Assembly: GCA_963773835.1 (NCBI GenBank)
Contig: CAVZCQ010000006.1
Coordinates: 46,061-110,060, forward strand
DNA from: an uncultured Acidobacteriaceae bacterium
GTDB lineage: Bacteria; Acidobacteriota; Terriglobia; Acidiferrales; UBA7541
Length of the DNA stretch: 64,000 nucleotides
Direction of reading: 5' to 3'
In this document: positions 6,546 through 55,180 of the stretch, in pieces
Layout: each line of letters begins with the position of its first letter
Numbering within the stretch: position 1 is the first letter of the stretch
Notes under the pieces: model-generated
What the model was told of the DNA's origin: nothing
Databases searched by the model: none
What the model saw: the letters and a program-made list of their open reading frames with translations, nothing else
Made by a program: the position numbers and the translations under genes

Positions 6546-6565
6546 CAGGCAGCGCACCACGGGAA

Positions 6566-6584: not shown

Positions 6585-6590
6585 TACCTC

Positions 6591-9992: not shown

Positions 9993-10072
9993 CCGGCTCC
10001 CGGGGACTGAGACGGTGCCAATCCGAATGAGCGATTCGCCGCTGTGCTAACCAAATCCTGAAAGGACGGTCC

Positions 10073-13293: not shown

Positions 13294-13336
13294 GAAGCGA
13301 AAATCAAGAAGTCGGATACGCTCGAATGGGGGGAAC

Positions 13337-13741: not shown

Positions 13742-13793
13742 GCCGCGCGGGCGGCGCCTCGCACGGCAGCTTCGTGGCGCGATAGACGGTAGC

Positions 13794-13822
13794 GGGGCAT
13801 CCGCCGCGGCGGATGCCCCTCG
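13794..13822. repeat. REP-like hairpin (subfamily i): 26-nt perfect palindrome GGGGCATCCGCCG/CGGCGGATGCCCC followed by TCG; likely bidirectional terminator between convergent genes
   Basis: Palindrome read directly at 13794-13819. It lies between the stop at 13741 (+) and the stop at 13837 (-). Confidence 0.7.
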
Positions 13823-13836
13823 AAAGCCCCCGCCGC

Positions 13837-16572: not shown

Positions 16573-16775
16573 GGTTCTCCCTCCGAGAGTTTCAGACGGA
16601 ATTTGGAGTTATCCGGTTTCCGGGGCTGGTGCGCGAAGCAGGATGCCGACGCAGGCCAGGGTCGGGCCCCTGCGCCCCGGGAGAGATAGTACCGATTCCG
16701 GAGAGGCAAGGCCAGCCCGAAACTGGCGCGAGGGCTCGCGGACCGGCACAGGAGTGCAGCGGCGGGGAAAAGAAG

Positions 16776-23388: not shown

Positions 23389-23579
23389 TGCCTCTGGCGT
23401 GGTCACAATTCCTTGGGTGGATGGCCCTCGAACCGGCGCCCGGTACGACGGTCCCAGCAGTATTCCGTGAGAAAGTTGCGCGACCTCTCTGTCTCCCGCC
23501 CGGCCTGTGCTGTCGTCATGGTTGAGGAATGCGGCTGCCCCGCCGCCAATCGGAGCCATTGCGGGGCAAGGGGAACTCG

Positions 23580-39272: not shown

Positions 39273-41696
39273 CTAGGGCACAATCGGAATCGTAAAGTTC
39301 CGCTCCACGAACTGCCCCGCGGGAGTCGCTGGAAGAACCGAGGCATCGGTCACCCGGATGATGAATCCATTGACGCCGCCGCAGGTGGTCCCGGCCGTGC
39401 CAGCGGCAGTTCCGGAGATCTCGCCCGAAGTCGGGTTCAGCGTCAGACCGGCACAATTCGGATCCGACGCCAGGACGCCGTCCGGATTGCTCCAGGTGCG
39501 CTTCACGGCTCCGGTGGAGTCCACGACCGTGCCGCCGGCTGCCACGATAAAAGTGGCGTAGGGGTTTGCCGCCAGCGAAGCCGACGGAAGAGCGAATGGA
39601 GAGGCCGGGGCAAAGCCACCGGTGGTGAAATGGAGCGCCGGATCCACCATCAGGTCGAGTAGCTGCGGGCAGGAGCCTCCGTTGCCGCAAGGGTTTGTCG
39701 GAGCAGCGGAGAGCGGCGCCGGGTCAGTTGAGATGGCCGGGTCGATCACGGCTACGTCGGTCGCAATGTTGTACTCGATGGGGATGATGGTGTCCGAATC
39801 TTGGCAGCTCACGAATAAACGAGTGCCGGAGGGGGCGCCCGTCAATCGGGCCTTGATATCAACCGGCGTTTCGCAGCCCGATATCTGCGGGTTGGTACCG
39901 GGAGGCACGGGCAGGCTGATTGTGGCCACGGGAGCGGTGAAGTTGACCGTGCTGAGGTCCCCTGCCGAGATGTCGTACACCTGCACCGCGTTGTTGATCT
40001 GAGGCGTATTTGTGACGTCAAGACAATTGACAAACAGGCGATTGCCATCCGGCGAGGCGGTGAGGCCGGACACCACGTCGCCGTTCGCGCAGACATTGGC
40101 CGGCACGGTCGGGATCGTGTTGACCTGGGTGGAACCCGCCGACGCCGTAGTGATGGAGACAAAAATAAAGGCCCCGGTATTGTCGCGTGTGGCCGTATAC
40201 ACGTAATTCCCGCGCGGGTCCGTCGCGATTCCTCCTGCTCGCAGCCCGTTGCTCAGTGTGGTGGCCACGGTGGGAGCGGCGGCAATAGGTGTAGTGGGAA
40301 GACTCAGCACGCTGAACGTCGTGCACGGGGGGTTAGCTCCGACACAAGTTCCCGAGGGCAGATAATTCAAGGACAGGAAAGCCAAGCTGCCATCCGTGCT
40401 CAACGAAATGTTGTTGGCGTTGGGGACGATAAGGGCATCAGCTCCCGACAGGGTAGTCGGCACGAGTCCCGGATCTTCGGCGTCCGGAATCGGCTCCACA
40501 GTGGCTGAAGCCTGAGCACCGTCCGTGGGCTCGGACAGCCAGGCGTCATACCGGAAATTCCTCTGGACGGAGCAGGGAGGCGTTCCGCACGCAAACGCAG
40601 TGGAAAAGAACTTCTGGTTCCCGATATCAATCGCGCTGGGGTTGAACGTACCCGTGTTCGATACCACGATGGAATTGACCGCCAAGTCGCTGGCTGCGCA
40701 TCCCGGCGCCACGCACCCCGTGACCGTCGAGATCGAGTCAACCACCGAAACGTCGTGAGTATTCCCCTGTTTAGGCGCGTACACCCACTCGCCATCCGGT
40801 GAAACGCGGGCCGCAACCGGGTTGGCAGGGTTGACCGCGCTCGTTCTCAAGGAGATGAAGTTGACGGGGCTGAAGCCGTTGCTGTCGAAAGACACCACCG
40901 TGGAACCCATCTCTGCAGCACCCGATGCAAAGGTGGCTACGAAACCGTACTCCGGGAGAACTTTGTTGGTGGTGGTAAAGGTCGGGCAAGTGGTGGCGGT
41001 GGTGCAATTGGGCGTGGTGGGGTTGCTCGAATCGGTCACCGTAAAGGTGGTGGAGATCGTCGGCGTGCCCGGGGTGGAAGCCGTCGTGGGCGTTCCAACG
41101 TAATATCCCCTCTGTTGGGTCGCATCGTCGGTGGGCAGCGGAGAGGGATTGACGAACACGACTCCAGCTATCCCGCCCGCTGTCGTGGACCATGTGTAAG
41201 CAGGAGGAGGAGCGGCAGACGGGATTCCCCCGTTGTTGCTATAGAAAATCGCGCTATAGGGCTCGCCCACCGTGCCGTTCTCCAGGAACGTGTTTCCGAT
41301 CGTCAGCTCGGGAACTACGGTGATCGAGTCGGTGTTCCTCACACTGGCCGGGTCAGTGGCCACGGTGGCTGCCGGGGTGGTGGCATCGGCCGTATCCGCG
41401 AGGGTTATGGTGCCGGTCGCAGTGCTCCCCGTCACCCCGGCGCCTCCGCTATTGCAAGTCAACGTCAGCGTGGAATCCGCAGCGTTCGCTTGCGTGGGGC
41501 AGGTAATCGGCGTGGGGAAGCCCGAGCCCATGATCATCACGGTCGGCAGCCCTTCGCCGGCTGCCACCATGTAAGTCAGGTCCTGACTACCCTGCGGCGT
41601 GCCGTACTGCCGCCCGGTGACGGCATTCGTCACAGGGTTGGGACTCGGCAGGCTGATCGCCAATTGAAGACGGATGGTGATCGTTTTGGAAACCAC
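39273..41696 (-). CDS. C-terminal part (~815 codons) of a large lipoprotein adhesin: cadherin-like/He_PIG-type Ig modules + YVTN/lactonase-like beta-propeller + terminal Ig module; joined to the upstream ORF by a frameshift
   Basis: The apparent GTG start is an artefact. The frame is open upstream and reads ...SSTGTTAVVSKTITIRLQLAISLPSPNPVT, continuing the repeat pattern of the upstream ORF. Propeller-like blades include GNYVYTATRDNTGAFIFVSI, NRLFVNCLDVTN and GTRLFVSCQDSDTIIPI. Confidence 0.8.
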   Translation of the reverse strand: MVSKTITIRLQLAISLPSPNPVTNAVTGRQYGTPQGSQDLTYMVAAGEGLPTVMIMGSGFPTPITCPTQANAADSTLTLTCNSGGAGVTGSTATGTITLADTADATTPAATVATDPASVRNTDSITVVPELTIGNTFLENGTVGEPYSAIFYSNNGGIPSAAPPPAYTWSTTAGGIAGVVFVNPSPLPTDDATQQRGYYVGTPTTASTPGTPTISTTFTVTDSSNPTTPNCTTATTCPTFTTTNKVLPEYGFVATFASGAAEMGSTVVSFDSNGFSPVNFISLRTSAVNPANPVAARVSPDGEWVYAPKQGNTHDVSVVDSISTVTGCVAPGCAASDLAVNSIVVSNTGTFNPSAIDIGNQKFFSTAFACGTPPCSVQRNFRYDAWLSEPTDGAQASATVEPIPDAEDPGLVPTTLSGADALIVPNANNISLSTDGSLAFLSLNYLPSGTCVGANPPCTTFSVLSLPTTPIAAAPTVATTLSNGLRAGGIATDPRGNYVYTATRDNTGAFIFVSITTASAGSTQVNTIPTVPANVCANGDVVSGLTASPDGNRLFVNCLDVTNTPQINNAVQVYDISAGDLSTVNFTAPVATISLPVPPGTNPQISGCETPVDIKARLTGAPSGTRLFVSCQDSDTIIPIEYNIATDVAVIDPAISTDPAPLSAAPTNPCGNGGSCPQLLDLMVDPALHFTTGGFAPASPFALPSASLAANPYATFIVAAGGTVVDSTGAVKRTWSNPDGVLASDPNCAGLTLNPTSGEISGTAAGTAGTTCGGVNGFIIRVTDASVLPATPAGQFVERNFTIPIVP

Positions 41697-44600
41697 GGCT
41701 GTGGTTCCGGTGCTCGAATCCGCTGGGCGTCGTCGCGTTGGCCGTATCGTCGAAAGTGATCATGAATGGGTATGCCCCGGCTGTGGCCCCAATTGGCGTA
41801 GTCCCGCCAGTGCAGGTAACCACAGTGTTCGCGCCGTTGGCAGTGCAAGCCACCGCGCTGGGAACGCCGTTTACTGCGGGAGCACCCACGGTAGCCGGCA
41901 GGGTGATCGTGTACCCAGTTGCGCCGGGAATACCGCCCATGGCGTCGTAAATCAAAGCCTTGAAGCCGGCCATGGTATTGCCGTAGGTCCGGTTGACGAC
42001 GCCGAACGGTGGCGGGTCAACGCTCGCTGCATCCACGGTGAACGACAGGGCGGCGTTAACCGTGAGCGAGTCCATCCTCTGGCTGGCAGGGTCGGTGCCC
42101 GTGGTGGCGGCCGGAGTGGTGGCGTTTGCCGTATCGGTAGCGGTGACCGTACCGGTGGCAGTGGCTCCGGTGACGTTCATGTTGCTGCTGTTGCAATGCA
42201 TCGTCAGCGTGGAATCTGCTGCGTTGTTTACCGTGGTGCAGGTAATGGGGGCGGGGAAGCCCGCGCCCATCAGGGTGACGGTCGGCAACCCCTCGCCCGC
42301 CGACAGGCTATACAGCAGGTCCTGACTGCCCGCAGGAGTGCCGTACGGGCGTCCGTTGACCGCGGGGGTCACAGGATTCGGACTCGGCGCGTTGATTGCC
42401 AGTTGCTTCCGGATGGTGATGGTCCGGGCAATATTGGAGGTGGTGCCGGACTGCGAACCGCTGGGCGTTGTTGGGTTGGCCGTGTCGTCCAGAACGATCT
42501 GGAACGGGTACGCACCGAACGCCGCCGTAATTACCGCGGCCCCGCTCGTACACGTGTCCACCGTGCCGGCGGCGTTGGGAGTACAGGCCACATTCTGGGG
42601 AACGCCGTTCGCCGCAGGGGCAGCCACCGAAGGCGGCTGCGTAAACGTGTAGCCCGTCACTGCGTTCGGAATTCCGCCCGTGGCGTCATAGATGAGAGCT
42701 TTGAAACCAGCGCCTACGTTGCCGTATGTCCGGTTGACCACCCCGTTGGTCGGCGGGTCTTGTCCCGCCGCATCCGGAGCGAGCGCCAGCGGCAGATTCA
42801 CGGTGATCGAGCCGGGAATGGCGGCCGGCTGGGTCCCCGAGGTCATGGCGCTCGGCGTGGTGGCGTTTGCAGTGTCATTCAGCGTGATCGAGAAACTATA
42901 TAGGCCCATGCCCGCCGAAACCGTTGAGGCGCCGCTAGTGCACTCCTCTTTTGTCGCGCTCGTCATGGTGCAAGCTACGGCATTCGGCACCCCGGTGCCC
43001 GGCGCGTTGATCGTCGCCGGGAGTCCAAATATGTAAGCCGGCAATCCGCCCGTGGCATCAAAGGCCAAATCCTTGAATCCAGCCCCCGTATTTCCATAGC
43101 TCCGGCCCATTACCGCAGGGGGCGCGGGATTCACTGCGGCAGAGTTGACATCGACGGCCAGGGCCAGCACTGCATTCACGTTGATCGAGGCAGGTGTGGA
43201 AGGTTGCGTCCCCGAGGCCATGGCGCTGGGCGTGGCCGTGTTGCCCGTGTCATTCGGCGTGATCGTGAAGGAATACAACCCGGGGCTCGCCGATACCGTG
43301 GAGGCGCCGCTGGTGCACTCCTCCTTTGTCGCAGCCGTCTGGGAGCAGGCCACCGCATTCGGCACACCGGTGCCGGGAGCGTTGAGCTGTGTCACCGCCG
43401 CAAAGGTATAGGGAGTCAGCCCTCCGGCAACATCGAACGCCAAATCCTTGAAGCCCGCAGCAGTGTTCCCGTAGGTCCTGCCCATGACGGCCGCAGGCGC
43501 GGGATTAACAGCCGGCACCCCCGCGGGGTCCAGCGACAGCGTCAGCGCCGGGTGGATCGTCAGCGCCACCGCTGCGGACGCCGGGATCGTGTTGGCCGGA
43601 ACGACCACCACCATCATCCCAGGCAGCAAATTCGGATCGAAAATCGGCGAATCCTTACCCGTAACGGTCAAGCTCAACGAGCCCGGGGACGTCGCCATAC
43701 TCAAGTTGCCCGTGCTCGCCAGGTCGCAAGTTGCCGGCGCTGCAACGGTCTCCCCCAGCGGGTTCCCCATCAAATTGGTACCCGCCGTGAATCCACAGGC
43801 TGTCAGCGGCATGTTGCCGACGGTCGCGGATACGTTCGTCGTCAGCGGGGGAGGCGCAAGAGGAGCATTGCCGTACGTGCGCCCCACCACTCCGTCGGGA
43901 AACGCAGCAGGCAGGGGGGTGTTGAAACTGAACTCCGAGCGCACCATCAAGTTGTTGGCGAAAGCGCCCGCCGCACTGGTACCGGAAGGCACCACCAGCA
44001 GATCCCCCGCTGGCACAGCGGCACCCGCAGCAAGGGGAATGACGGCTCCCGAGGGGAATGTCTCGACGAGTTGGGTATCCGTTGCCGTGACTGCCACCTG
44101 CGTCGGATCGGACACCGGGGGCATCCCGGACATCAGCCCGGCAGCGTTCGCCGGCCCGTTAATCGTGAAGGTGCACGCCGCGGTCGTGGCGGCGGGGGCC
44201 GTGCTGGCAAGCCCATCGAAGGGCAGCCCGACAACCATGCAGGTATATGGAGCTCCAGCCATAGCAAGTTGAGTTCCGCCCGTGATCGCGACCGAGAGAT
44301 TCTGCGTGTAGGCGCGGCCATTCACGGCATTGGCCAGGGAGAGCGCGGAGGCGTTTGTCGCCAGCGCCGGATTGATCGTGAGAGTAAGGGACGGCGAGAA
44401 AGCTACCTGTGGCGTCGGCGTGCCACTGTCCGTCACCTTGACGGATACCGCGCTGGAGCTCGCTACCGTGGCCATGCCCGTAACCTGACAGGACGTTCCG
44501 CCACCGGGAGTCGCGCTGAACGTTGCGGAAGCGCCAGAGAGGGGTCCCGCCGCTTGGAGGACACACGTGAATGGCGCCGTCCCTCCGGTGAAAACAAAAT

Positions 44601-44850
44601 CGTACGTATACGAGCGTCCAGCAACTCCGTTCGCCAATGCTGAGGTTGTAAACACCAATCCGCCCGGGTTCGGAATGGGGAGCCCGGAGGGCAGACCATG
44701 CGAGCCGCTCGCGCAGCCGGACAGGCCGCCCAGCGCGGCGAGCATCAGCACAAGGGCGCAGGCGCTTGCCACCCAGGAAATCTTCGAATGGGGAGTTGAG
44801 GCAGACCCTGCCAACCCCGCAGTTTCTACGTGCGATCTGGAAAGAAACAT
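41587..44850 (-). CDS. N-terminal part of the same lipoprotein adhesin: lipoprotein signal peptide + ~9 Thr/Ala/Gly-rich Ig-like (He_PIG/cadherin-like) modules; the true reading frame leaves this ORF near 41719
   Basis: ATG 44850 has RBS gggagga 6 nt upstream (the track ORF starts at GTG 44907). The signal is HSKISWVASACALVLMLAALGGLSGC with lipobox LSGC. The ~125-aa modules repeat as ...NPAP.AVMGR.YGN..AGFK.L.[FY]D..GG...Y.F... Confidence 0.8.
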   Translation of the reverse strand: MFLSRSHVETAGLAGSASTPHSKISWVASACALVLMLAALGGLSGCASGSHGLPSGLPIPNPGGLVFTTSALANGVAGRSYTYDFVFTGGTAPFTCVLQAAGPLSGASATFSATPGGGTSCQVTGMATVASSSAVSVKVTDSGTPTPQVAFSPSLTLTINPALATNASALSLANAVNGRAYTQNLSVAITGGTQLAMAGAPYTCMVVGLPFDGLASTAPAATTAACTFTINGPANAAGLMSGMPPVSDPTQVAVTATDTQLVETFPSGAVIPLAAGAAVPAGDLLVVPSGTSAAGAFANNLMVRSEFSFNTPLPAAFPDGVVGRTYGNAPLAPPPLTTNVSATVGNMPLTACGFTAGTNLMGNPLGETVAAPATCDLASTGNLSMATSPGSLSLTVTGKDSPIFDPNLLPGMMVVVVPANTIPASAAVALTIHPALTLSLDPAGVPAVNPAPAAVMGRTYGNTAAGFKDLAFDVAGGLTPYTFAAVTQLNAPGTGVPNAVACSQTAATKEECTSGASTVSASPGLYSFTITPNDTGNTATPSAMASGTQPSTPASINVNAVLALAVDVNSAAVNPAPPAVMGRSYGNTGAGFKDLAFDATGGLPAYIFGLPATINAPGTGVPNAVACTMTSATKEECTSGASTVSAGMGLYSFSITLNDTANATTPSAMTSGTQPAAIPGSITVNLPLALAPDAAGQDPPTNGVVNRTYGNVGAGFKALIYDATGGIPNAVTGYTFTQPPSVAAPAANGVPQNVACTPNAAGTVDTCTSGAAVITAAFGAYPFQIVLDDTANPTTPSGSQSGTTSNIARTITIRKQLAINAPSPNPVTPAVNGRPYGTPAGSQDLLYSLSAGEGLPTVTLMGAGFPAPITCTTVNNAADSTLTMHCNSSNMNVTGATATGTVTATDTANATTPAATTGTDPASQRMDSLTVNAALSFTVDAASVDPPPFGVVNRTYGNTMAGFKALIYDAMGGIPGATGYTITLPATVGAPAVNGVPSAVACTANGANTVVTCTGGTTPIGATAGAYPFMITFDDTANATTPSGFEHRNHSRGFQNDHHPSSIGDQPAESQPCDECRHRAAVRHAAG

Positions 44851-44946
44851 ACACGTCCTCCCATGAGTACGGAGTGCGAAGACAAAGTGGCCCGACCCCA
44901 AATACACGACGACCCCTCAGCGTCCGTCGTTTTGGCAAGCTACTAC

Positions 44947-45205: not shown

Positions 45206-48200
45206 ATGAGAGTGCGCCTGCCCAGCTGTATACTGATTTTTGCTGCCGCTATGCTGCTGTTTGCCGGGACGCTCCCTGGCCAGACGATCAGCGGGATCAT
45301 TGCCGGCCGGGTGACGGACGCCAATGGAAAGCCCCAGGCCGCCGTGGCCATCGTCGTCAGCAGCGAGGAATCTGGCCTCAAGTTCACCGGAAATACGGAC
45401 TCCCAAGGATTTTACCGGATCTTGGAGGTTCCGCCCGGCCTGTATGAAGCCCGGGCCATCAGCAGCATGCCCACCGCCATTCACTCTAACGTGCGCGTGG
45501 ACGTGAACCGTACGACGGCCGAAAATTTTGTCCTTCAGCCCGAGGAACAGCGGCCGGTGGGTTCGAGCGCGCCGGAAACGGATCTGTACAGCCCCACGCT
45601 GAGCACCGCCTTCCTGGGCGCGCCAGTGGTCGAGATTCCGGTGGTTACGCGCGACGTCAATAACCTGGCCCTGCTGGCCCCCGGAGTGGAGAGCGTGCGC
45701 ACCTTCAGCTTCGCGAGCACGCTGGTTCCCTTCTCGGTGAACGGTTCGCGGGGCCGCGATAACAACTTCACGATTGATAGCGTGGACAACAACGAGCCGC
45801 TGTTCGGCGGAGCCGCCACACAGTTCACCAACAACGAAATCTTCCAGGAGTATTCGATCTCGACTGGCCAGCTCAAGGCCGAATTCGGGCGCAACAGCGG
45901 CGCGACGGTCAACGCCATCACCAAGAGCGGCTCCAACAACTGGCACGGAACGCTCTTCGGCTTCGGGCAGGACGACCTGACGAACGCCATGAATAACGTC
46001 CAGAAGCAGGCCCTGTTGAACTCTCCGGAAACCTTCTACGATACGACGCTCGGCGGCACGCTGGGCGGACCGGTCAAAAAAGGCAAGTCATTCTTCTTCC
46101 TCTCCTACCAGTGGGACCGAATTACCGACAACTTGAGCGACGTCTACCCGGTGCTGGCGAATTATCCCGCCACTCCGGCGGACCTGGCCACGCTGAAGGG
46201 CTTGCCGACCACGCCGGCGCTTCAAGCCTATCTGGGCACTCCGTCAGTCAATGTGGTCCCCGGGGTGGGGGGCGTCACGCCCTGCTTCACCGGAACCAGC
46301 GCCGAAATTAAGAATAACCAGCAGGGCCTCTATCAGGCTCCCAACCCGTGCCTAGTCACCTCCACGGCCGTCAACGCCGGCTCCCTCTTCGGCACGGTGG
46401 TCCCTGTGAATTTTAACGTCTTCAATGTTCCCAATGCCAACACCTTCAATCTGCGCGATCATGAAGTTTCCGGACGTTTCGACCAGAAGTTGAACGATTC
46501 CAACGACATTTACGCCCGCTATCTGTTCGACGACCTGGCTTCGCCGCAATCCCCGCTGGAAACGCCGGGCGTGAGCGCGTTTTCGGACATCGGGCTTCTG
46601 CCCGATTGGAAAACGCTCCTCCGCCAGCGCACCCAGAGCTTTCTGCTGGATCATCGTTACCGGCGGCCAGGCGGTTCGCTTAACGAATTCCGAATCTCTT
46701 ACAGCCGCGTTTCCCAGCGCCAGGGAGCGTTTAACGCGCCAGCCGACTCGCTGCATCTCCCGGCAGCGATTATTAGCGACTGCTTTGCCGGCAACGGCAC
46801 GGCGCCTTTCTTTGGAATCGCGAACAGCGGTTGCGCCTCAACGGGCGTTGGTGCCAACGTTGCTGGCGCCAACACCCTCGGCGGACTCGGGGGCCAGGGG
46901 ACCTACCCCAGTTCACTCGGCCAGACGCAAGTCCCGGCGGGAATCTTTCCCTCGGTGGGCAATCTGATCACCGTAGGGACAGACTCCGGCCCCGCCCGCG
47001 TCACCAGCAACACCTACCAGATCCAGGACAATTATTCGTACACGGTTGGCAGGCATAACATCAAGCTGGGCGCCAACTTCGCCAAGATCGACACCAACTC
47101 CCTCGGCATGCCCGATGACAATGGCTTCTACCTCTTCACCGGGTTCGGTTTTCTCAACGGCTTTCAGACCTTCGCGACCGAACCGAGCGCCGTCCCGAAC
47201 TGCTCGTTTAGCATGGCCCCGTTCTGCCCGTTTACGGATGCTGCCCTGACCAGCCAGCGCCTCGTAAACGTGCGCACGAACGCCAGCGGAGCGATAACCG
47301 GCCAGGGTCCCAACGAAATCAAGATCAAGGAATTCGACCAGTTTTACTTTGCCCAGGACGACTGGCGCGCCCGCAGCAACCTGACGTTCAACTTCGGCGT
47401 GCGCTATGAGAATTTCGGCCAGCCCATCAATTCCGTGCACGACATCAATCCCAACGCACCCTTCGTCAATACGGACAACAAGGATTTCGCTCCCCGTATC
47501 GGCTTTGCTTACTCGCCTTGGGGCAGGCAAGATTGGGTGATCCGGGGGGGCTATGGAATTGAATACGATCCCCCGATCCTGAATCTCCCCTTGCTCATCT
47601 GGCAGAGTGGACCGGTCTCTCCGCTCATTACGACCGATGCGTTCTTTATCGCGCCAACGCAACCCACCGGCGTATACCCGAATCCGCCGTATGCCGTGAA
47701 TGGGAACCCGCTTGCTGCTGTCCAAGGCACGAACCCCTTCAGCGGTCTGCCGGCTGGATTCGTCGGCGGCTGCAGCCAGTATTACGATCTCTTCGATAGA
47801 ATCAACGGCACGACCGTATTCCCCGGCCGGGCGGATACGGGCAAGGTCCCGATCGTGAACTGCTCCGACCAGAACACCGTGTCGAAGAACCTGAAGAATC
47901 CCTATGTGCAGCAGTGGTCGTTGGGCGTGCAGCACGAGCTGCCGGGCAAATTCCTGGCAGAGGTGGATTACGTGGGCAGCAAAGGCACCCGGCTGTTCCA
48001 ACGCATCGAGACCAACCCCTTCCAGGGCTGGGACAGCACCTGCGTGGCAAATATCGCAACCTTGTACGAGTCAGTGGGAATAGGCAACCTCCAGCAGCCC
48101 GGTCAGTGCCGCTTCCCGCGCATCGATAACACCCATGGCGACGTCACGCAGGTGACCAACGGCGGCAGCTCCGTCTATCATGCGCTGCAAGCCAGCCTGG

Positions 48201-49243
48201 TAAAGCGCCAGATGCATACGCGCTACGTCGGCGACCTTACGTTCACGGCCTCCTACACCTGGAGCCATCTCATTGACAATACCAGCGAGATTTTCGGGCC
48301 TGGCTTCCGCACCTTCGGCAAAAGCGATCTTCAGCAGGGCGGTACAGGGGCGGTGCCGGTCGGTTTCCTGTTCGACCCCCTGGCCACAGCGCCGGTCGAG
48401 GCCATTACTCCTCTCGCGCAATCCTTTAACTCGACAACCGGTGCCGAACGGGGAAATTCCTCGTTCGACCGGCGGCATCGATTCGCCGCGAGTTTTGTGT
48501 GGCAGCCGTTTACCACCAAGAATGTCTGGGCGGGGGGCTGGGAATTGGGCGGCGTATTCACCTACCAGTCCGGCCAGCCGTTCAGTCCTCTCAACGCTTC
48601 TCCCTCCAGCACTTGCGCCGACACCAACGGAGACGGGAGCTTGAGCAACGACCGTCCCAACATCGGAAACGCCTCACTCCCCAAGAATCTGGTCGCGCTG
48701 GTGGCCGACCCGCAATGCCTCAGCGCCGCGGCCTACAATATCTTCAATACAAAGACGGGAACCACCGTGGCGTCGGGGGTCACCCAGGCGCAGGCTATGA
48801 CCATGGCCCACTTCGTGCAACGGCCGCTGTTTGCCAATGCCGCTCCTCCGGGGGCTGCGGGCCTCTCCGGCCCCACGACCTACGCCGGCGATATAGGACG
48901 CAATAGCCTGGTCGGTCCCGCAATCACCGACTTGGATCTGGCGCTCTATAAGACCTTCACGTTCGCCGAGCATTACCATCTGCAGTTCCGCTGGGAAGTC
49001 TACGATGTTTTTAACCACCCCAATCTGGGAGGGTTTAACGGCAATCCGTACATCGGCAATGCGTCCGCGGCGCCCGCGTTCGGGTTTGCGTCCACACGCA
49101 CCGGCGCCGCGATCACGGGCGGCATCCCGGAGAATGCCATCGATGCGCAGAACAACGTAACCGGAGCCCATACCTTCCTCAGCACCACTTCGATGAACAC
49201 CGGCAGCCGGCGTATGCAGTTCGGCCTGCGGTTCATCTTCTAA
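45206..49243 (+). CDS. TonB-dependent outer-membrane receptor with N-terminal carboxypeptidase-regulatory-like domain (acidobacterial type), 1345 aa
   Basis: In-frame ATG 45206. Signal peptide MRVRLPSCILIFAAAMLLFAGTLPGQ. TISGIIAGRVTDANGKPQAAVAIVVSSEESGLKFTGNTDSQGFYRILEVPPGLYE is the CarboxypepD_reg domain. The plug region is FSVNGSRGRDNNFTIDSVDNNE. The C-terminal barrel ends in ...RRMQFGLRFIF. Confidence 0.85.
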   Translation: MRVRLPSCILIFAAAMLLFAGTLPGQTISGIIAGRVTDANGKPQAAVAIVVSSEESGLKFTGNTDSQGFYRILEVPPGLYEARAISSMPTAIHSNVRVDVNRTTAENFVLQPEEQRPVGSSAPETDLYSPTLSTAFLGAPVVEIPVVTRDVNNLALLAPGVESVRTFSFASTLVPFSVNGSRGRDNNFTIDSVDNNEPLFGGAATQFTNNEIFQEYSISTGQLKAEFGRNSGATVNAITKSGSNNWHGTLFGFGQDDLTNAMNNVQKQALLNSPETFYDTTLGGTLGGPVKKGKSFFFLSYQWDRITDNLSDVYPVLANYPATPADLATLKGLPTTPALQAYLGTPSVNVVPGVGGVTPCFTGTSAEIKNNQQGLYQAPNPCLVTSTAVNAGSLFGTVVPVNFNVFNVPNANTFNLRDHEVSGRFDQKLNDSNDIYARYLFDDLASPQSPLETPGVSAFSDIGLLPDWKTLLRQRTQSFLLDHRYRRPGGSLNEFRISYSRVSQRQGAFNAPADSLHLPAAIISDCFAGNGTAPFFGIANSGCASTGVGANVAGANTLGGLGGQGTYPSSLGQTQVPAGIFPSVGNLITVGTDSGPARVTSNTYQIQDNYSYTVGRHNIKLGANFAKIDTNSLGMPDDNGFYLFTGFGFLNGFQTFATEPSAVPNCSFSMAPFCPFTDAALTSQRLVNVRTNASGAITGQGPNEIKIKEFDQFYFAQDDWRARSNLTFNFGVRYENFGQPINSVHDINPNAPFVNTDNKDFAPRIGFAYSPWGRQDWVIRGGYGIEYDPPILNLPLLIWQSGPVSPLITTDAFFIAPTQPTGVYPNPPYAVNGNPLAAVQGTNPFSGLPAGFVGGCSQYYDLFDRINGTTVFPGRADTGKVPIVNCSDQNTVSKNLKNPYVQQWSLGVQHELPGKFLAEVDYVGSKGTRLFQRIETNPFQGWDSTCVANIATLYESVGIGNLQQPGQCRFPRIDNTHGDVTQVTNGGSSVYHALQASLVKRQMHTRYVGDLTFTASYTWSHLIDNTSEIFGPGFRTFGKSDLQQGGTGAVPVGFLFDPLATAPVEAITPLAQSFNSTTGAERGNSSFDRRHRFAASFVWQPFTTKNVWAGGWELGGVFTYQSGQPFSPLNASPSSTCADTNGDGSLSNDRPNIGNASLPKNLVALVADPQCLSAAAYNIFNTKTGTTVASGVTQAQAMTMAHFVQRPLFANAAPPGAAGLSGPTTYAGDIGRNSLVGPAITDLDLALYKTFTFAEHYHLQFRWEVYDVFNHPNLGGFNGNPYIGNASAAPAFGFASTRTGAAITGGIPENAIDAQNNVTGAHTFLSTTSMNTGSRRMQFGLRFIF

Positions 49244-49553: not shown

Positions 49554-52500
49554 TTACTTGAAGTGAATGGAAACTGTGACTCTGGTCTTGACCGGCTTGC
49601 CCTTGACTGTGGGAGCGCTGAAGTGCCAGCCGCCCTTGGCCGCGGCGACTGCGCCCGCTCCCGGGCTGGGGAACCCGGCCACGGGCTGAGCGTCGGTGAC
49701 GTTGCCGCTAGTGTCCACCACGACCTGGAGTCTGGCTTCGCCGCCCTTCTGCCCGGACTGCAGGACATCGCCCGGCAGCCCGCAATTTGCGCCCGTGGTC
49801 AGCTTCAGTTCGTTATCCAGGAACACCTCATTGAGCTCCTGGCCGGCGGTGACGGGATTCGTCCACGGCTCGCGAGATTTCGCAACCACCTGGCACACGG
49901 CACCGCGCTCGGAAGCGGCATGCACCTTTTCCGCACGGTCGATTTCCGCGCCCAATGAGCTTGTGTTTTCGCCCAGAGCCTGCAGGTCGGACAGCTTGGC
50001 GCGCGCGCCGGCATAATCGTTGGCGCCTTCCAGGCGTTTGATCTCCCCGGTAATCTGGCCGATCTTCTCCGTCTTCTCCCTCGCCTGCTGCGCCACCGCC
50101 GCCCTCTGCGCTTCGGCCTTCAGATTATTGATCTTGGTTTCCAGCAGCCGTGAAGCGTTGCGCGCCTCACTCGAGTGGCGCCCGTTGGCATTGGCGATGG
50201 CGTCCATCGTGGCCTTGGCGCTGATCAGCGCCCCTTCGTCGTTGCTGTTGGCCTGCGACTGCGCCTGGGCAAACTGCGCGTCCAGCTTCTTCCCGCCCTC
50301 AATCTGATTGCGCAGACTCGGGACCTCATCCTTGTGCGCCGCCCCTTCCCCGAGGCCCTGCAGTTGGTCCAGAGCCTGGCTGGCGCGATCCCACTGTCCG
50401 CTGGCGACTGCCGCGTTCGCGGAATCGAACAAATCGTTGGACTTGGCGAGTATGGCCGCGAGATCCTTGTTTTTCTCCACATTGTCGATCTGCGTCCTGT
50501 CCGTCTGAATCGTGGACAGGAATGACGCGTTCAGGTTCTTCGATTTGATGAAGCTCTCCGCATCGGTCAGCTTCTTCCGCCCGCCGTTATAGTCGCCCTT
50601 GGCCGCCACCTTCATGGCCTGCTGGATCATCTCGGTGGCCTTCTTCTCATCCGGTGAAGGGCCGGTCTGGATCACGGGCGGCGGCGGCTGAACCACGGGA
50701 TTGGTGGCAGTGGTCGACGTCCCACCGGCGGGCTGCGTGACCGCAGGATTTTCCGGCTGGGTGGTGGTGTTGGGCTGATTGCTACCTCGGCCCATGAACA
50801 TGTAAACGCCCACGCCGATCACCACGACAGCCGCCACGCCTCCGATAATCATCCCCATACCGCCCTTTTTGGCAGCGGGTGCGGGCTCGAATGTAACCGC
50901 CGGGGGGGAAGGCGCCTTGCGTTCCTCGACCGAGGGCTTCAGCGGCGGTTCTTTGACCGGCGGAGCGGCGGCAGCGGCCATGGGCTGTGCCGCCGGTTTG
51001 GGCGCAGGCGGTGGCGGAGGAGGAGGTGCCTTGACCTCCGGCTTCGGTTCCACCTTGGGCGGAGCCGGCGGTACCACCACCGTGCTCGTGCTCACCGCAG
51101 CGGGCTCTTCGACGTGTCTGCCCTTCTCTTTCTCTTTCTGCTTCTTTTTCTCTTCCTTGGTCTTCGGAGGAGCGATGGCGGTCTTTTCTTCCACCGGCGG
51201 AATTACCGTCGTCTTTTCGCCGATCGGCGGAATCACCGTCGTCTTTTCCTCAACGGGCGTGGGGGGCGCAACCGCAGCGGCATTCATGCCCGCCGGAACG
51301 GCCGCCGGGGGCGCCGGCGCAACCACTGGCGGAGTCTTGAACTTGGTCGTCTCTTCGCCGATTTCGGGCCGGAACACGCGCGTCGCTCCGCCGGCGTCTC
51401 CGCTGGGAACCGCGGCCGGCGCGGGTTTTACACCCAGCCCGCCAATGCCTCCCACGCGCGTCTTGTCGCCCTCGCCCTCGGCCGGCTGCACCGGCTTGCT
51501 GCGCATCAGGGTGAGTTCTTCTTTTGTGGGCACGCGGTGGTCTTCCGCGGCGCGCAGCAGCGCCGGAACGCGCGCATCGATCATGTCGTCGCGATCGAGG
51601 ACGCGCAGAATCTTCGCGGCCTCGTCGAACTTCTTGTCTTCAATCAGCCCAATGGCCTTCAGCGTCTGCTCGTCGTGGTTGCGGCGCTGATCGCGGAGCG
51701 AGCGCTCCTGCTTGGCCATTTCGATCAGCTTGGTGAGGTCCGTGTCCTTCCCCGCCTGCACCACGGTGCGGTTGCCCAGATCGATGGCCCCGGTCAGGTC
51801 CCCGCGCTCGATGGCCTGCCGCATGGTGCGCAGCCGCTCATCCAGCAGCCTCTGGCGCTCGCGGTTCTTGAATTCCTTCTGCTGCGAGGTCACCTGCTCC
51901 AGGCGCTGCCTGAACTCCGCGTCGCCGGGGAACTCCTTCACCGCCTCCTGGCAGGCGGTCAGCGCCGCGTCGAAGTTGTTGGCCTGGACGTGATTGTTGA
52001 TTTCCTGGTTGCGCGACTGCCGCCGCTTCAGTACGTCCTGCTGCGAGCGCTGCGTCCTGGCGAATTCCACCAGGCGGCTCAACTCGAAGTCGTCGGGAAA
52101 CTCCTTCAGCAGCGCCTCGCCGTTGGAGATGGCATCCGCGAACTTCTCTTCGTTCACCTGGCGCTTCAGGCTTTCCAGTTCCTTCTGCAGGCGAAGCTGC
52201 TTCGCGTGCTCGCTGCGCTCCTGCAGCACCAATTCGCGCAGCTTTACCGCCGCGGACTCGTTGGGATAGCGCTGCAGCAACTTGTCCAGAGTGCCCAGGG
52301 CTTCGTTGAACGACTGCGCGCCCAGCTGTTTGCGCGCTTCCGCCAGCGACCGCTGGATTTCGTCCTGGGCCTTGTCCGCGCGGACGGCTTCGAGCAGCTT
52401 TACCACTTCGGATTCGTTCGGGTATTCCTGCTCGAGGGTGCCGAGAACCTTCAGCGCCTCATCGAACTGCTGCGCCGTCCACAACTGCCGGGCCCGCTGT

Positions 52501-53849
52501 ACCCCGTCGGTAAGCTGCTTGCGCTTTCCCCGCCGTTCCTTCTCCTCCGCGATCTGCTTCCGCAGCGACTGCGCTTCCTGGTTGTCGGGCGCGGCCTGCA
52601 GGATGCGGTCCAGCGACTGCTCCGCGTTGGTCAGGCTGCCTTCGGCCAGGTGCTGGCGGGCTTCCCTCATGCCCGTCTGCACCATCTTGAACTGCATCTC
52701 CGCTTCTTGGACTTTGCCCAGCAGCTCGCGGGCGGGCACGAAATTCGAGTCCAGGTGCAGGGCCGCGTCCGCCTCGCGGCGGGCATCGTCCAGATTGCCC
52801 GCCTGGAAGTGCTTCTCCGCCGAAGCCACCATGTCGTTCAGCTTCGGCATCACTTCGCTGCGGCGGATTTCGGAGTTGACGCGGTCCAGCAGCGTCTTGG
52901 CGTGCGTGTGCGAGGTGTCCAGCACCAGCGCTTGTTTCAGTAGTTCCTTGGCGCGCTGCAAATCCCCCTTGTTCAGCAGCGTTTCGCTTTGCGTCACCAG
53001 CAGGCCCACGCTCTCCTGCTGCATCTTCCGCGCCACCGGCTCCAGCTCGTTCAGCAGCTCTTCCATGCTCTGGTAGCGCTCGCCGGGTTCCTTCCTGAAA
53101 ATCCGGCGCATGATGTCGTCCACTTCGGGCGGCAGGTCGGGGCGGAGATCGCGGATGGACTTCGGTTCCTGGCTGACGATGGCGAACATCACCGCGGTGA
53201 TGTTGCCCCCCTGGAACGGTTTCGTGTAGGTCAGGATTTCATACGTCATCACACCTACGGCCCAGATGTCGGAGCGCCCGTCCACCTTCTCGCCCCGAAT
53301 CTGTTCCGGCGACATGTAGTCGATCGTCCCGATGAGCATGCCCGAGGACGTGGAGGAGGTGTCCGTCAACCGCGCGATGCCGAAGTCCACCACCTTCACC
53401 GTGCCGTCGTGGGTCACCACGATGTTCCCGGGCTTGATGTCGCGGTGGACGATGTTCCGCTTGTGCGCGTATTCCAGCGCGCGGCACACCTGCACGATGT
53501 AGCTCAGTTTGATGGAGGCCGGAAGCGGGTTCTGTCCGCCCTCTTCCTTTTCCTTGTCCACCATGTGGCCCAGGTCATCGCCATCGAGCAATTCCATGGC
53601 GATATAGGGGATCCCGCTGTCTTCTCCCATGTCGTAAATCGTGACGATGTTGGGATGTTGCAGCGCGCCCGCGGCCCGCGCCTCGCGATAGAACCGCTCC
53701 AGCAAATCCGGGTTGTCGGTGAAATTTCCGGTGATCGTCTTGATCGCTACCGTGCGGCCGATGAACGGATCCTTGCCGCGGTACACCACGCCCATAGCTC
53801 CGCGACCGAGCTCTCCAAGGATCTCGAATTTGCCGATCTTCTTTTGGAT
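49554..53849 (-). CDS. Hanks-type Ser/Thr protein kinase with long TPR/coiled-coil region, Pro-rich linker, one TM helix, extracytoplasmic coiled-coil region and C-terminal TonB_C-like domain (~1430 aa)
   Basis: The track ORF starts at ATG 53795 (MGVVYRGKD...AIKT...HRDIKPGNIV...DFGIA...GTIDYMSPEQ). The frame is open upstream and encodes the missing beta-1/G-loop residues (IQKKIGKFEILGELGRGA). I therefore extend to ATC 53849, which follows an AGGAG box. The TM helix is MGMIIGGVAAVVVIGVGVYMFM at ~50793-50858. The C-terminus is GEARLQVVVDTSGNVTDAQPVAGFPSPGAGAVAAAKGGWHFSAPTVKGKPVKTRVTVSIHF. Confidence 0.85.
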   Translation of the reverse strand: MQKKIGKFEILGELGRGAMGVVYRGKDPFIGRTVAIKTITGNFTDNPDLLERFYREARAAGALQHPNIVTIYDMGEDSGIPYIAMELLDGDDLGHMVDKEKEEGGQNPLPASIKLSYIVQVCRALEYAHKRNIVHRDIKPGNIVVTHDGTVKVVDFGIARLTDTSSTSSGMLIGTIDYMSPEQIRGEKVDGRSDIWAVGVMTYEILTYTKPFQGGNITAVMFAIVSQEPKSIRDLRPDLPPEVDDIMRRIFRKEPGERYQSMEELLNELEPVARKMQQESVGLLVTQSETLLNKGDLQRAKELLKQALVLDTSHTHAKTLLDRVNSEIRRSEVMPKLNDMVASAEKHFQAGNLDDARREADAALHLDSNFVPARELLGKVQEAEMQFKMVQTGMREARQHLAEGSLTNAEQSLDRILQAAPDNQEAQSLRKQIAEEKERRGKRKQLTDGVQRARQLWTAQQFDEALKVLGTLEQEYPNESEVVKLLEAVRADKAQDEIQRSLAEARKQLGAQSFNEALGTLDKLLQRYPNESAAVKLRELVLQERSEHAKQLRLQKELESLKRQVNEEKFADAISNGEALLKEFPDDFELSRLVEFARTQRSQQDVLKRRQSRNQEINNHVQANNFDAALTACQEAVKEFPGDAEFRQRLEQVTSQQKEFKNRERQRLLDERLRTMRQAIERGDLTGAIDLGNRTVVQAGKDTDLTKLIEMAKQERSLRDQRRNHDEQTLKAIGLIEDKKFDEAAKILRVLDRDDMIDARVPALLRAAEDHRVPTKEELTLMRSKPVQPAEGEGDKTRVGGIGGLGVKPAPAAVPSGDAGGATRVFRPEIGEETTKFKTPPVVAPAPPAAVPAGMNAAAVAPPTPVEEKTTVIPPIGEKTTVIPPVEEKTAIAPPKTKEEKKKQKEKEKGRHVEEPAAVSTSTVVVPPAPPKVEPKPEVKAPPPPPPPAPKPAAQPMAAAAAPPVKEPPLKPSVEERKAPSPPAVTFEPAPAAKKGGMGMIIGGVAAVVVIGVGVYMFMGRGSNQPNTTTQPENPAVTQPAGGTSTTATNPVVQPPPPVIQTGPSPDEKKATEMIQQAMKVAAKGDYNGGRKKLTDAESFIKSKNLNASFLSTIQTDRTQIDNVEKNKDLAAILAKSNDLFDSANAAVASGQWDRASQALDQLQGLGEGAAHKDEVPSLRNQIEGGKKLDAQFAQAQSQANSNDEGALISAKATMDAIANANGRHSSEARNASRLLETKINNLKAEAQRAAVAQQAREKTEKIGQITGEIKRLEGANDYAGARAKLSDLQALGENTSSLGAEIDRAEKVHAASERGAVCQVVAKSREPWTNPVTAGQELNEVFLDNELKLTTGANCGLPGDVLQSGQKGGEARLQVVVDTSGNVTDAQPVAGFPSPGAGAVAAAKGGWHFSAPTVKGKPVKTRVTVSIHFK

Positions 53850-54113
53850 GGCCGCTAACTCCTGCCCTCGAAAAGTCGCGGTCCGTTAGCCCACACGCCT
53901 AGCCGTGCGGGCAGACGAATACACCCACACCCTGCGCAGAAACACTGCGCCGGAAACCTCATCCTAAGTTCGATAGTGTCAAATGGATGGAGGGGTGTCA
54001 ATGGCCCCATCTGGGCCTGTACGATGGTGCCACTACACGCTGTCCCCGTCGAACTCCCGTACTGGTACCGGTTATCGCCCTGCCTTCCGTCTCCACGCCG
54101 GCCTGCCCCGGAT

Positions 54114-54359
54114 TCACGCCTTCGTCCACTCCCGAAACGCCTTGCGAAATGCCTCGAGTGCTTCCGGCGCCACCTCTCCTGCCCGAAGCCTTCCTGTGGC
54201 CCGCAGGGTCAGCCGCATTTGTTCCAGGTAGTCGCGGCAACTCCCGCAAAGCGAGAGATGCTTCTCAAACCGCGCCCGATCTTCTACGCTGATCTGGCCT
54301 TCCAGGTAGGCCGTCACCAGCTCCACCAGCTCGATGCAGTCCATGCCCCACGGGTTCAT
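54114..54359 (-). CDS. Small soluble ZAS-family (zf-HC2, RsrA-like) anti-sigma factor, 81 aa
   Basis: MNPWGMDCIELVELVTAYLEGQISVEDRARFEKHLSLCGSC carries C8-x25-H34-x3-C38-x2-C41. There is no TM segment. The gene overlaps the sigma gene stop by 4 nt. Confidence 0.75.
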   Translation of the reverse strand: MNPWGMDCIELVELVTAYLEGQISVEDRARFEKHLSLCGSCRDYLEQMRLTLRATGRLRAGEVAPEALEAFRKAFREWTKA

Positions 54360-55180
54360 GGCCGCCTTCCCTTCCCTTGAAAATGCCCTTCCACCGCCTT
54401 ACGCAGCTTCGAGCGCCCGCGGTGCAGCAGCACCCGCTGATTCGCCTCCGTGAGGCCCAGCGCCTCGCATACCTCTTCCGAAGTCCACTCCTGAGCGTCC
54501 CGCAGCATCACCACGCTTCGTTGCACGGGCGGAAGCTGCTCCATGGCGCCGCTCAGGAACTCCAGCGTCTCGTTCGAGCTGACCCACTGTTCCGGATCGT
54601 CGCCCCAGCGCTGGAGCGGCACGGTCCAGTGCCCGGGATACTCGCCTGCCGCGTCCTGGAAACGATCCGCAGCCACCGCCGGGTCAGCCCGGCCGGCCTC
54701 GTCATCGGCCAGCGCGGAAAATGCCACGGTTCGCCCTTCCCGTTCGCCCCGAGTGCGCGCACGGTTCATCAGAATGCGCACAATCCAGGTCTTCAGCGAC
54801 GCGCGCCCTTCAAACCGGTCTATCCCCTGGAACACGCCCAACCACGTCTCCTGCACCACCTCCTCCGCCACGGCGTCGCTGCGCACATAGACCCGCGCCA
54901 CCCGCTTCAGCACAGCCTGGTGCCGCTGCACCAGTTCAACGTAAGCCGCTTCGTCCTTCCGCCGCAGCCCTTCCAGCAGCGCGAGTTCGTCCCCTGTAGG
55001 GCCGCCCTTTAGGGTGGCCTCCGCGCCCCTCGAAGCGGACTCTGGCGGCGCCGAGCCACGACCGCCTGACTGGCCCGCGTTCACCCCCGAACCTCGCCCG
55101 CTCCAATCATTTAGTCTCCCCAGCCCTCCAACTGTTTCAGCCGCAATCGCGCCCGGCCCGCGGAGCCCGCAGAGAACCAT
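54356..55180 (-). CDS. ECF-family sigma-70 factor (start uncertain; long Gly/Ser/Arg-rich N-terminal extension in the longest ORF)
   Basis: Region 2 is DELALLEGLRRKDEAAYVELVQRHQAVLKRVARVYVRSDAVAEEVVQETWLGVFQGIDRFEGRASLKTWIVRILMNRARTR. Region 4 is LPPVQRSVVMLRDAQEWTSEEVCEALGLTEANQRVLLHRGRSKLRKAV. The only in-frame canonical starts are ATG 55180 and one GTG about 32 codons downstream. Confidence 0.8.
   Translation of the reverse strand: MVLCGLRGPGAIAAETVGGLGRLNDWSGRGSGVNAGQSGGRGSAPPESASRGAEATLKGGPTGDELALLEGLRRKDEAAYVELVQRHQAVLKRVARVYVRSDAVAEEVVQETWLGVFQGIDRFEGRASLKTWIVRILMNRARTRGEREGRTVAFSALADDEAGRADPAVAADRFQDAAGEYPGHWTVPLQRWGDDPEQWVSSNETLEFLSGAMEQLPPVQRSVVMLRDAQEWTSEEVCEALGLTEANQRVLLHRGRSKLRKAVEGHFQGKGRRP

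Follow-up and report, generated by a model that had tools for sequence, protein, structure and literature searches.

The DNA analyzed here (the window) is a stretch of 64,000 nucleotides (nt) of contig CAVZCQ010000006.1, assembled from an uncultured Acidobacteriaceae bacterium. Its minus strand encodes, at 49554–53849, a very large Hanks-type Ser/Thr kinase that crosses the membrane once and ends in a TonB_C domain. The gene lies tail-to-tail with that of an Oar-like TonB-dependent receptor, beyond which a giant repeat protein is encoded. Comparison with related loci reveals that the kinase-TonB_C protein and the receptor are conserved neighbors, and that an extracytoplasmic function (ECF) sigma factor located upstream of the kinase is not part of this arrangement. 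The three genes, and the parts of the kinase protein, are the following.

49554–53849 (−): kinase-TPR-transmembrane-TonB_C gene, 1431 residues; stop codon at 49554–49556, inferred ATC start at 53847–53849 (translation, Pfam; TPR, tetratricopeptide repeat)
53052–53825 (−): Hanks-type Ser/Thr kinase domain, residues 9–266, cytoplasmic (Pkinase, E = 7e-52; motifs)
51513–53042 (−): cytoplasmic TPR/helical-repeat region, residues 270–779 (TPR_14, TPR_19 and TPR_2 matches)
50859–51512 (−): Pro/Ala/Lys/Val/Glu-rich low-complexity linker, residues 780–997, on the cytoplasmic side of the transmembrane helix (composition)
50793–50858 (−): single transmembrane helix, residues 998–1019 (hydropathy; transmembrane alignment of 41 family members)
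49899–50792 (−): periplasmic Pro/Thr-rich spacer, residues 1020–1069, and TPR-like helical repeats, residues 1070–1317 (AlphaFold2, Foldseek)
49557–49898 (−): C-terminal module, consisting of a beta-strand extension, residues 1318–1367, and TonB_C, residues 1368–1431 (Pfam, NCBIfam, profile, AlphaFold2)
45206–49243 (+): Oar-like TonB-dependent receptor, 1345 residues from MRVRLPS, in an open reading frame (ORF) that opens at 45092 (Pfam, ortholog alignment)
39273–44907 (−): giant repeat protein, divergent from the receptor, in two overlapping ORFs, 41587–44907 and 39273–41696 (tblastn)

The motif scan finds a complete catalytic core in the kinase domain (GRGAMGVV glycine-rich loop, VAIK, HRDIKPGN, DFG and SPE), provided that the ATC at 53849, or a codon before it, is where translation begins. 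The TPR region that follows, in which Pfam matches span residues 286–650, is highly conserved across the kinase family according to the conservation profile. It leads into a linker of 218 residues (22% Pro, 11% Lys, 10% Glu) with low conservation in the family. The linker carries short tandem peptide repeats (EEKTTVIPP / GEKTTVIPP / EEKTAIAPP, window 51195–51243), which account for paired terminator-like matches on the strand opposite to it. Residues 998–1019 are the sole transmembrane candidate, as no other 19-residue segment exceeds 1.2 on the Kyte-Doolittle scale. The helix is purely hydrophobic, and neither an SxxxH motif nor a His residue occurs in it in any of the 41 aligned family members. 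Since the kinase domain must be cytoplasmic and there is a single transmembrane helix, the last ∼410 residues would lie in the periplasm.

When AlphaFold2 (AF2) models the entire periplasmic part, the Pro/Thr spacer comes out disordered and is followed by ten helices with a predicted local distance difference test score (pLDDT) above 80 and then by a beta-rich head. Foldseek relates the helices, through weak matches, to the TPRs of P58IPK and BamD. A possible counterpart of a TonB-type Pro-rich spacer is the disordered stretch of 50 residues after the transmembrane helix; the main Pro/Lys/Glu region is cytoplasmic and the stalk is TPR-like. A reading of the same DNA made from the letters alone (the sequence-only reading) had given the order kinase, TPR, Pro/Lys/Glu linker, transmembrane helix, periplasmic part and TonB_C, with a linker of ∼220 residues and the helix at 50793–50858. 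Translation, Pfam and hydropathy agree with it on every one of these points, and Pkinase, TPR and TonB_C all return profile matches. Its ∼330-residue extracytoplasmic coiled coil did not survive: a coiled coil or TolA-like long helix was rejected for this region, which instead consists of the Pro/Thr stretch and ∼250 residues of TPR-like repeats.

This single-pass Hanks kinase ends, on its periplasmic side, in a genuine TonB_C domain. The domain matches PF03544 (TonB_C) at E = 6.6e-6, its 26.9 bits exceeding the gathering score of 24.6, and, independently of the Pfam match, the NCBIfam model TIGR01352 (tonB_Cterm) with 27.6 bits against a cut-off of 27.1. A profile of 21 family C-termini (alignment A1) matches the TonB2 structure 2k9k with E = 6.5e-5, and the TonB C-terminal domains (CTDs) of E. 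coli, Salmonella and Pseudomonas with E-values near 1e-2. The last 135 residues are modeled by AF2 with a pLDDT of 89, and the top Foldseek matches of this model in the PDB are all TonB CTDs (6fip, 9dc4, 6i97, 8rd6 and 1u07), with 6fip as the best (prob 0.99, TM(target) 0.56, weak E-value of 0.028). The TonB C-terminal pattern that the sequence-only reading had picked out thus passes both curated cut-offs and finds its best structural matches among TonB CTDs. The beta extension in front of the domain contains two conserved Cys residues in clade 1, likewise two in clade 3 and none in clade 2. Among the proteins that score highly against the C-terminal profile are many with 3–10 tandem TonB_C domains (among them P0124, P0129, P0140 and P0210); one multi-TonB_C protein packs seven copies into 777 residues. 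A 1048-residue AAA_35 protein, P0126, also bears the full C-terminal module (E = 3e-37).

In a full-length search, the kinase protein falls within a large family of proteins from Acidobacteriota that combine kinase and TPRs, with source names that include 'Candidatus Acidoferrales/Acidiferrales' and Terriglobia. The C-terminal module is common to 44 of the best 120 full-length homologs, all 44 of them 1099–1520 residues long; homologs without it mostly have 1600–2050 residues and different C-termini. The kinase-TonB_C fusion defines a subfamily in Acidobacteriota (Terriglobia/'Acidiferrales'). P0064, a protein of the same length class without TonB_C, was excluded as a control, as its C-terminus appears to be frameshifted. 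Four contigs with an Acidobacteriota-type locus (L015, L017, L033 and L044) belong to metagenome-assembled genomes (MAGs) labeled Patescibacteria, Binatia, Xenobia and Aquilonibacter, and are probably mis-binned or sit in mislabeled bins.

The receptor is composed of a signal peptide, a CarboxypepD_reg N-terminal extension (PF13620, E = 3e-12), a plug-like region and an OMP_b-brl_4 barrel (PF25183, E = 3e-114), and its orthologs additionally match PF00593. Pfam returns no match to the plug family PF07715 in the window receptor, in which the plug-like region gives a weak profile match to the FepA plug (E = 0.033), and no match to the STN signaling domain (PF07660) at E ≤ 1. As the sequence-only reading had stated, this 1345-residue receptor ends 310 nt from the kinase gene on the opposite strand. 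Receptor orthologs are 43–82% identical and co-diverge with the kinases. Their plug region is extremely conserved, and most of them carry a TonB-box-like strand of the form E-x-V-x-V-x-S-x-AP (e.g., EEVVVVQSTAP). The giant protein of the window is read in ORFs of 1106 and 807 residues that overlap by 110 nt in different frames; either the gene is truly split, or a frameshift or sequencing error has produced the overlap. The protein is homologous to the 1500–2800-residue He_PIG/Big_3_5 giants that adjoin the receptor in other loci (31–33% identity to those of L003, L005 and L006, tblastn), and matches to it turn up in many receptor loci. Pfam finds no significant domain in it, and a lipobox (LSGC) near its N-terminus constitutes a lipoprotein-like signal.

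Genomic neighborhoods associate the kinase-TonB_C protein with the receptor. On the kinase side, the contigs of nine TonB_C-bearing family members and the window provide ten contexts, and a convergent CarboxypepD_reg + OMP_b-brl_4 receptor lies directly downstream of the kinase in 9/10 (the window, L001, L003, L005, L006, L008, L011, L013 and L014). In each of these nine loci, a giant He_PIG/Big_3_5-type repeat protein is encoded beyond the receptor and divergently from it. L010 alone departs from this, its kinase being followed by restriction-modification, transposase and HNH genes. For two paralogs of the kinase that lack TonB_C (P0053 and P0071), no receptor gene lies within 8 kb. On the receptor side, a signature drawn from the plug alignment A3 (GRDNNF[IT]I / D[SA]VDNNEP) was searched for in one genome each of 185,579 species and gave 84 matches, of which 39 are confirmed orthologs, all from Acidobacteriota-type MAGs. 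Thirty-two of these loci are informative (at least 1 kb downstream) and were analyzed by tblastn, a family hidden Markov model (HMM) and Pfam. Downstream of the receptor or adjacent to it they contain:

18 of 32 loci: a convergent kinase-TonB_C gene
2 of 32 loci (L052, L053): PP2C, kinase, receptor and giant all on one strand
1 of 32 loci (L050): a convergent AAA_35-PEGA protein ending in a TonB_C-like module
11 of 32 loci: no such neighbor

A TonB_C-bearing neighbor is kept in 21/32 informative receptor loci. The divergent TonB_C ends in L046, L049, L050, L052 and L053 were missed by tblastn and recovered by the family HMM, and Pfam confirmed some of them only; those of L052 and L053 are weak (E = 2e-4 and 4e-3, family HMM). 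In the latter two loci (∼4100–17300, plus strand) the gene order has changed and the adjacency has been kept, possibly within an operon. L050 is a deep-branching receptor locus in which an AAA_35 ATPase-PEGA protein (13267–15849, minus strand) occupies the place of the kinase and ends in the same TonB_C-like module; this neighbor was also considered as a kinase, a reading rejected on the Pfam result. The gene upstream of the kinase varies while the receptor stays, and may be an ECF pair, a GH63 gene, an ADH-like gene, a TPR gene, a response regulator or a PP2C gene. The linkage is thus retained through at least six upstream contexts and one gene-order change (L052/L053), and the pairing that the sequence-only reading had described for the window holds well beyond close relatives. 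Because it survives upstream reshuffling, inversion and a swap of the cytoplasmic domain, the TonB_C protein and the receptor are likely to work together. This is the main argument for a functional link, which we regard as probable from comparative sequence evidence.

Other recurrent neighbors suggest what the output might be. A PP2C phosphatase adjoins the kinase in 12/24 contexts, directly upstream on the same strand in L005, L006, L010, L011, L027, L029, L033, L046, L049, L052 and L053, and on the opposite strand in L037. An FHA-domain adenylate/guanylate cyclase is encoded divergently from the kinase in six contexts (L005, L006, L011, L014, L027 and L029). PP2C and FHA proteins are the classical eraser and reader set of a Hanks kinase, and their presence points to a phospho-Thr and cyclic-nucleotide output. 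Neither gene occurs within the 64-kb window. The ExbB and ExbD Pfam families are absent from the called neighbors in the ∼10 annotated kinase loci.

Upstream of the kinase, on the same strand, the window contains two further features.

53850–54069 (−): the kinase's own upstream region, with a conserved block at 53917–54069, then GGAG and the ATC start
54114–55180 (−): ECF sigma factor (54356–55180) and 81-residue soluble zf-HC2 anti-sigma factor (54114–54359) (Pfam, NCBIfam)

The conserved block is ∼150 nt long and includes TTGACA-17nt-CACTAT. Along the minus strand it reads GGTACCAGTAC ... GTGGCACC ... GGGGCCATTGACACCCC ... TTTGACACTATCG, followed by the conserved hairpin GGCGCAGTGTTTCTGCGC. 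It is kept in seven aligned loci irrespective of the upstream gene, pointing to a promoter and leader that belong to the kinase gene itself; the upstream region as a whole is 83% identical to that of L001. The leader fold has a z-score of −3.0 and pairs the start-codon region, and Rfam gives no match in it. A promoter scan returned no sigma-70 match upstream of the kinase, the −10 element CACTAT scoring 3/6. A sigma-54 reading of GTGGCACC was rejected, as L016 and L017 have TAGCAC there and do not keep the GG.

The sigma and anti-sigma genes lie on the kinase strand as the sequence-only reading had placed them, with a gap of 264 nt to the kinase instead of its 255. The anti-sigma factor consists of zf-HC2 only, without a transmembrane segment, and its metal-ligand-type residues (C8 ... 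H34-x3-C38-x2-C41, that is, C-x25-H-x3-C-x2-C) have an RsrA-like spacing, RsrA being redox-sensing. It scores 29.7 bits against TIGR03988, below the cut-off of 62.5. Being soluble and spaced in this way, it would be a self-contained cytoplasmic switch that needs no membrane transducer. Across the 24 kinase contexts with upstream sequence, an ECF pair stands beside the kinase in three (the window, L015 and L008), and L013/L020 keeps an anti-sigma-like remnant only. The pair is absent from L003, from L001, which shares ∼80% DNA identity with the window across the kinase/TPR region, and from L016 and L017, whose kinase domains are 91–93% identical and in which a divergent GH63 gene directly abuts the kinase upstream region. 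Given this distribution, its absence from the closest relatives and its separation from the kinase by the conserved promoter/5′ untranslated region block, the pair is best read as an independent, occasionally adjacent unit outside the conserved module.

We give about an even chance to the reading that this module is a single-pass receptor kinase with a periplasmic TonB/TolA-like arm, tied to an Oar-type receptor without ExbBD-type coupling. Its starting points are shown by the data from these loci, namely the domain architecture, the reasoning on topology, the fold of TonB_C and the linkage conserved between the genes. The arm would run from a membrane anchor through a flexible Pro/Thr spacer and a stalk of helical repeats to the TonB_C head, and would tie the kinase to the convergent Oar-type receptor and, via the receptor, to the giant repeat (lipo)protein. 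In other TonB-dependent transporters (TBDTs), it is established that the TonB box becomes accessible once a ligand binds, and then pairs with TonB_C as a beta strand. Here the head would contact the periplasmic N-terminal region of the receptor, at either the TonB-box/plug region or the CarboxypepD_reg extension; we consider such direct contact plausible, if slightly short of an even chance. Such contact would link the state of the channel in the outer membrane to kinase activity in the cytoplasm, in either direction, and outside-in signaling specifically seems somewhat unlikely. Physical contact, the direction of signaling and the substrates are what we infer, and the output would be phospho-Ser/Thr signaling, with PP2C as the likely eraser and the FHA-cyclase as the likely reader where they are adjacent. 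The SxxxH signature in the transmembrane helix is what couples TonB and TolA to ExbBD and TolQR. As this helix has no SxxxH and no exbBD genes lie nearby, the kinase protein is more probably a sensor or regulator than an energizer.

Three other explanations have to be weighed against a TonB_C receptor kinase. The sequence-only reading had proposed a FecA-FecR-FecI-like unit, with the kinase in the place of FecR and in control of the ECF sigma factor, for example by phosphorylating the 81-residue anti-sigma factor or the sigma factor itself. The position of the ECF pair, upstream on the same strand in the window and likewise in L015, with a similar pair nearby in L008, agrees with such a unit, and kinase control of ECF sigma factors exists elsewhere in PknT/EcfP and PknS/EcfK (PMC8999054, PMC13147305). 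However, those ECF factors have no anti-sigma factor and their linkage to the kinase is conserved, whereas the window pair includes a zinc-binding (ZAS) anti-sigma factor and its linkage is not conserved. An example of a genuine ECF-kinase module from these genomes is found at L054 (16154–18315, plus strand), near a paralogous kinase, where a Sigma70_ECF (PF07638) gene and a Pkinase gene form a tight operon without an anti-sigma gene. Furthermore, the pair is missing from 21 of the 24 contexts, that of L008 is split from the kinase by an opposite-strand TPR gene, and the promoter-like block goes with the kinase only. An STN domain is missing from the receptor, and the anti-sigma factor, as a self-contained soluble switch, is not a transmembrane protein of the FecR type. 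A second ECF sigma and zf-HC2 pair in the window (∼3053–3797, plus strand; 25–36% identity to the first by tblastn) suggests that such pairs are frequent in the genome and that adjacency arises easily by chance. The sequence-only reading had named occurrence of the fusion without a neighboring receptor or ECF pair as a sign against its proposal; the fusion does occur without the ECF pair, and the receptor is mostly kept. We therefore consider control of the ECF factor by the kinase highly improbable.

A dedicated, kinase-regulated TonB paralog is a second proposal, in which the C-terminal 430 residues would energize the Oar-like transporter or gate it from the inside out, perhaps for export or surface display of the giant lipoprotein in the way that Oar serves PopC, and would be tuned by the kinase/TPR part. 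The order of membrane anchor, spacer and TonB_C mirrors TonB, its gene is in tight linkage with that of a single TBDT and with that of a giant protein that is secreted or lipidated, and Oar-class TBDTs can secrete proteins and need contact between the TonB box and TonB (PMC6434023). Dedicated paralogs such as HasB have solved structures, and the HasB CTD (2m2k) is among the structural matches. Against energization stand the transmembrane helix without His or SxxxH in all 41 members, the lack of ExbB/ExbD neighbors, the cytoplasmic instead of periplasmic position of the main Pro/Lys/Glu segment, a stalk of TPR-like repeats instead of a Pro-rich rod, and the degenerate TonB box of the window receptor, so that we judge this proposal quite unlikely. 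It is also unlikely, if a little less so, that there is no direct contact at all, with TonB_C acting as a generic envelope (peptidoglycan or outer-membrane) anchor of a housekeeping-type receptor kinase and the adjacency reflecting inherited synteny or shared regulation. The points in favor of a generic anchor coincide in part with those against the receptor-kinase reading. TonB_C-like domains are very common (12,048 representative proteins at E ≤ 1e-3 with the C-terminal profile) and occur in many architectures, in these phyla including multi-repeat proteins, M56 peptidases and AAA_35 proteins, so the domain may be a generic envelope-binding module. Against the receptor-kinase reading it also counts that both TonB_C scores are marginal, barely over the curated cut-offs, and that the Foldseek E-values of the C-terminal model are weak (≥ 0.028). 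One third of the receptor orthologs (11/32) have no adjoining kinase; in the receptor tree these belong to three clades, which suggests about three losses or relocations, and the pairing is therefore dispensable or able to act in trans. Kinase and receptor, being convergent, are not co-transcribed, and the linkage evidence is synteny within one phylum that may in part be inherited gene order. Finally, the TonB-box-like strand is degenerate in the window (EEQRPVGSSAP; ∼45590–45640, plus strand, receptor residues ∼130–145) and in the closest relative L015 (EEKPPLQSSAP), with Pro residues and a short deletion relative to orthologs in both. This argues against canonical beta-augmentation in that lineage, where contact between kinase and receptor may involve the N-terminal extension or the plug instead of the TonB box. 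What speaks against mere inheritance is that the linkage outlasts repeated reshuffling upstream of the kinase, inversion to one strand (L052/L053) and replacement of the kinase by an AAA_35 protein with the same C-terminal module (L050), and that paralogs without TonB_C are also without the receptor.

The candidate receptor kinase shares features with several known systems and coincides with none of them. Like TonB, HasB and TonB2, it has an N-in single transmembrane anchor, a periplasm-spanning spacer and a C-terminal TonB_C fold, its gene adjoins that of a TonB-dependent receptor, and its best matches are 2k9k (TonB2), 6fip (P. aeruginosa TonB CTD) and 6i97 (FoxA-TonB). Unlike TonB, it places ∼1000 cytoplasmic residues (kinase, TPRs and linker) before the transmembrane helix, lacks SxxxH, has a TPR-like stalk, has no exbBD nearby, and adds a beta extension at the N-terminal side of TonB_C. 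The FecA-FecR-FecI system likewise joins an outer-membrane TBDT, a single-pass inner-membrane protein that crosses the periplasm and a cytoplasmic regulatory output. Here, however, the receptor has a CarboxypepD_reg extension instead of STN, the kinase protein has no FecR domains, the output is a Hanks kinase and the ECF factor is not a conserved partner. With PknB/PstP-type systems the protein has in common a kinase, one transmembrane helix and an extracytoplasmic sensor, as well as a PP2C gene directly upstream in about half of the lineages and an FHA protein nearby. It differs from them in its sensor, where TonB_C at the end of a long helical stalk takes the place of PASTA or a different ligand-binding domain, in its linkage to an outer-membrane transporter and, in the window, in having neither PP2C nor the FHA-cyclase next to it.

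The receptor itself resembles Oar of Myxococcus xanthus in its CarboxypepD_reg extension, plug-like region and large PF25183 barrel. Oar requires its TonB box and a Ton system, and secretes PopC (PMC6434023). No kinase-TonB_C partner has been described for Oar, the plug of the window receptor is not recognized by PF07715, and its neighbor is a giant repeat lipoprotein instead of a protease. Like the kinase protein, GltG and GltJ of Myxococcus gliding sit in the inner membrane and combine cytoplasmic domains with a periplasmic arm similar to that of TolA/TonB; these arms are proposed to pull TonB-box-bearing outer-membrane barrels (PMC9946355). Their cytoplasmic domains differ, none being a kinase, and they work with the AglRQS motor; the kinase protein has next to no sequence similarity to GltJ (17 bits, where the cut-off is 450). 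BlaR1-like fusions of an M56 peptidase to TonB_C, which are unstudied, likewise use TonB_C as the periplasmic module of signaling proteins, with a cytoplasmic domain that is not a kinase. Each of the parts (Hanks kinase, TPRs, TonB_C and Oar-class TBDT) is known, and the principle of connecting a receptor in the outer membrane to a transducer in the inner membrane is not new either. The searchable literature yielded no account of proteins that fuse a kinase to TonB_C, nor of such fusions being paired with a TBDT.

To our knowledge, TBDTs communicate with the cytoplasm in two ways only, through TonB for energy and through STN-domain/FecR/ECF cascades. We tentatively propose a third TBDT-coupled trans-envelope device in Acidobacteriota, in which a Hanks kinase would read or set an Oar-type channel through an ExbBD-independent TonB_C head and relay its state by Ser/Thr phosphorylation to PP2C/FHA-cyclase (cyclic-nucleotide) circuitry, with possible control of uptake or export linked to the giant surface lipoprotein. 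If true, an Oar-class receptor with a TonB_C kinase would add phosphorylation, and probably cyclic-nucleotide, signaling to the TBDT routes. It would also offer a testable handle on the numerous Oar-like receptors and very large Ser/Thr kinases of Acidobacteria, a dominant but little-studied soil phylum. More generally, judged from domain composition, TonB_C becomes a candidate sensor or docking module on signaling proteins that include a kinase, an AAA_35 protein and an M56 peptidase. In place of the ECF link of the sequence-only reading, which is removed, there is now a better-supported conserved receptor/giant-protein/kinase module with PP2C and the FHA-cyclase.

The start of the kinase gene is of interest for annotation. 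No in-frame ATG, GTG or TTG occurs between the upstream stop codon and the Gly-loop of the kinase (window 53795–53880; likewise in L005, L006, L008, L013 and L017), and the start at 53849 is therefore read as ATC, with GGAG 9 nt upstream. This ATC is conserved in clade 1 (GCGGCC ATC CAA AAG AAG) and replaced by CTG in clade 2, at approximately the position of the ATG/GTG start in clade 3. The pattern suggests a conserved non-canonical initiation codon in clades 1 and 2 of the kinase family. Public gene calls start at an internal MGVVY and remove beta1 and the G-loop; the non-canonical start would explain this truncation, and the start codon of the gene family is systematically miscalled. Elsewhere in the window, the largest ORF (23529–35489, plus strand) encodes 3986 residues.

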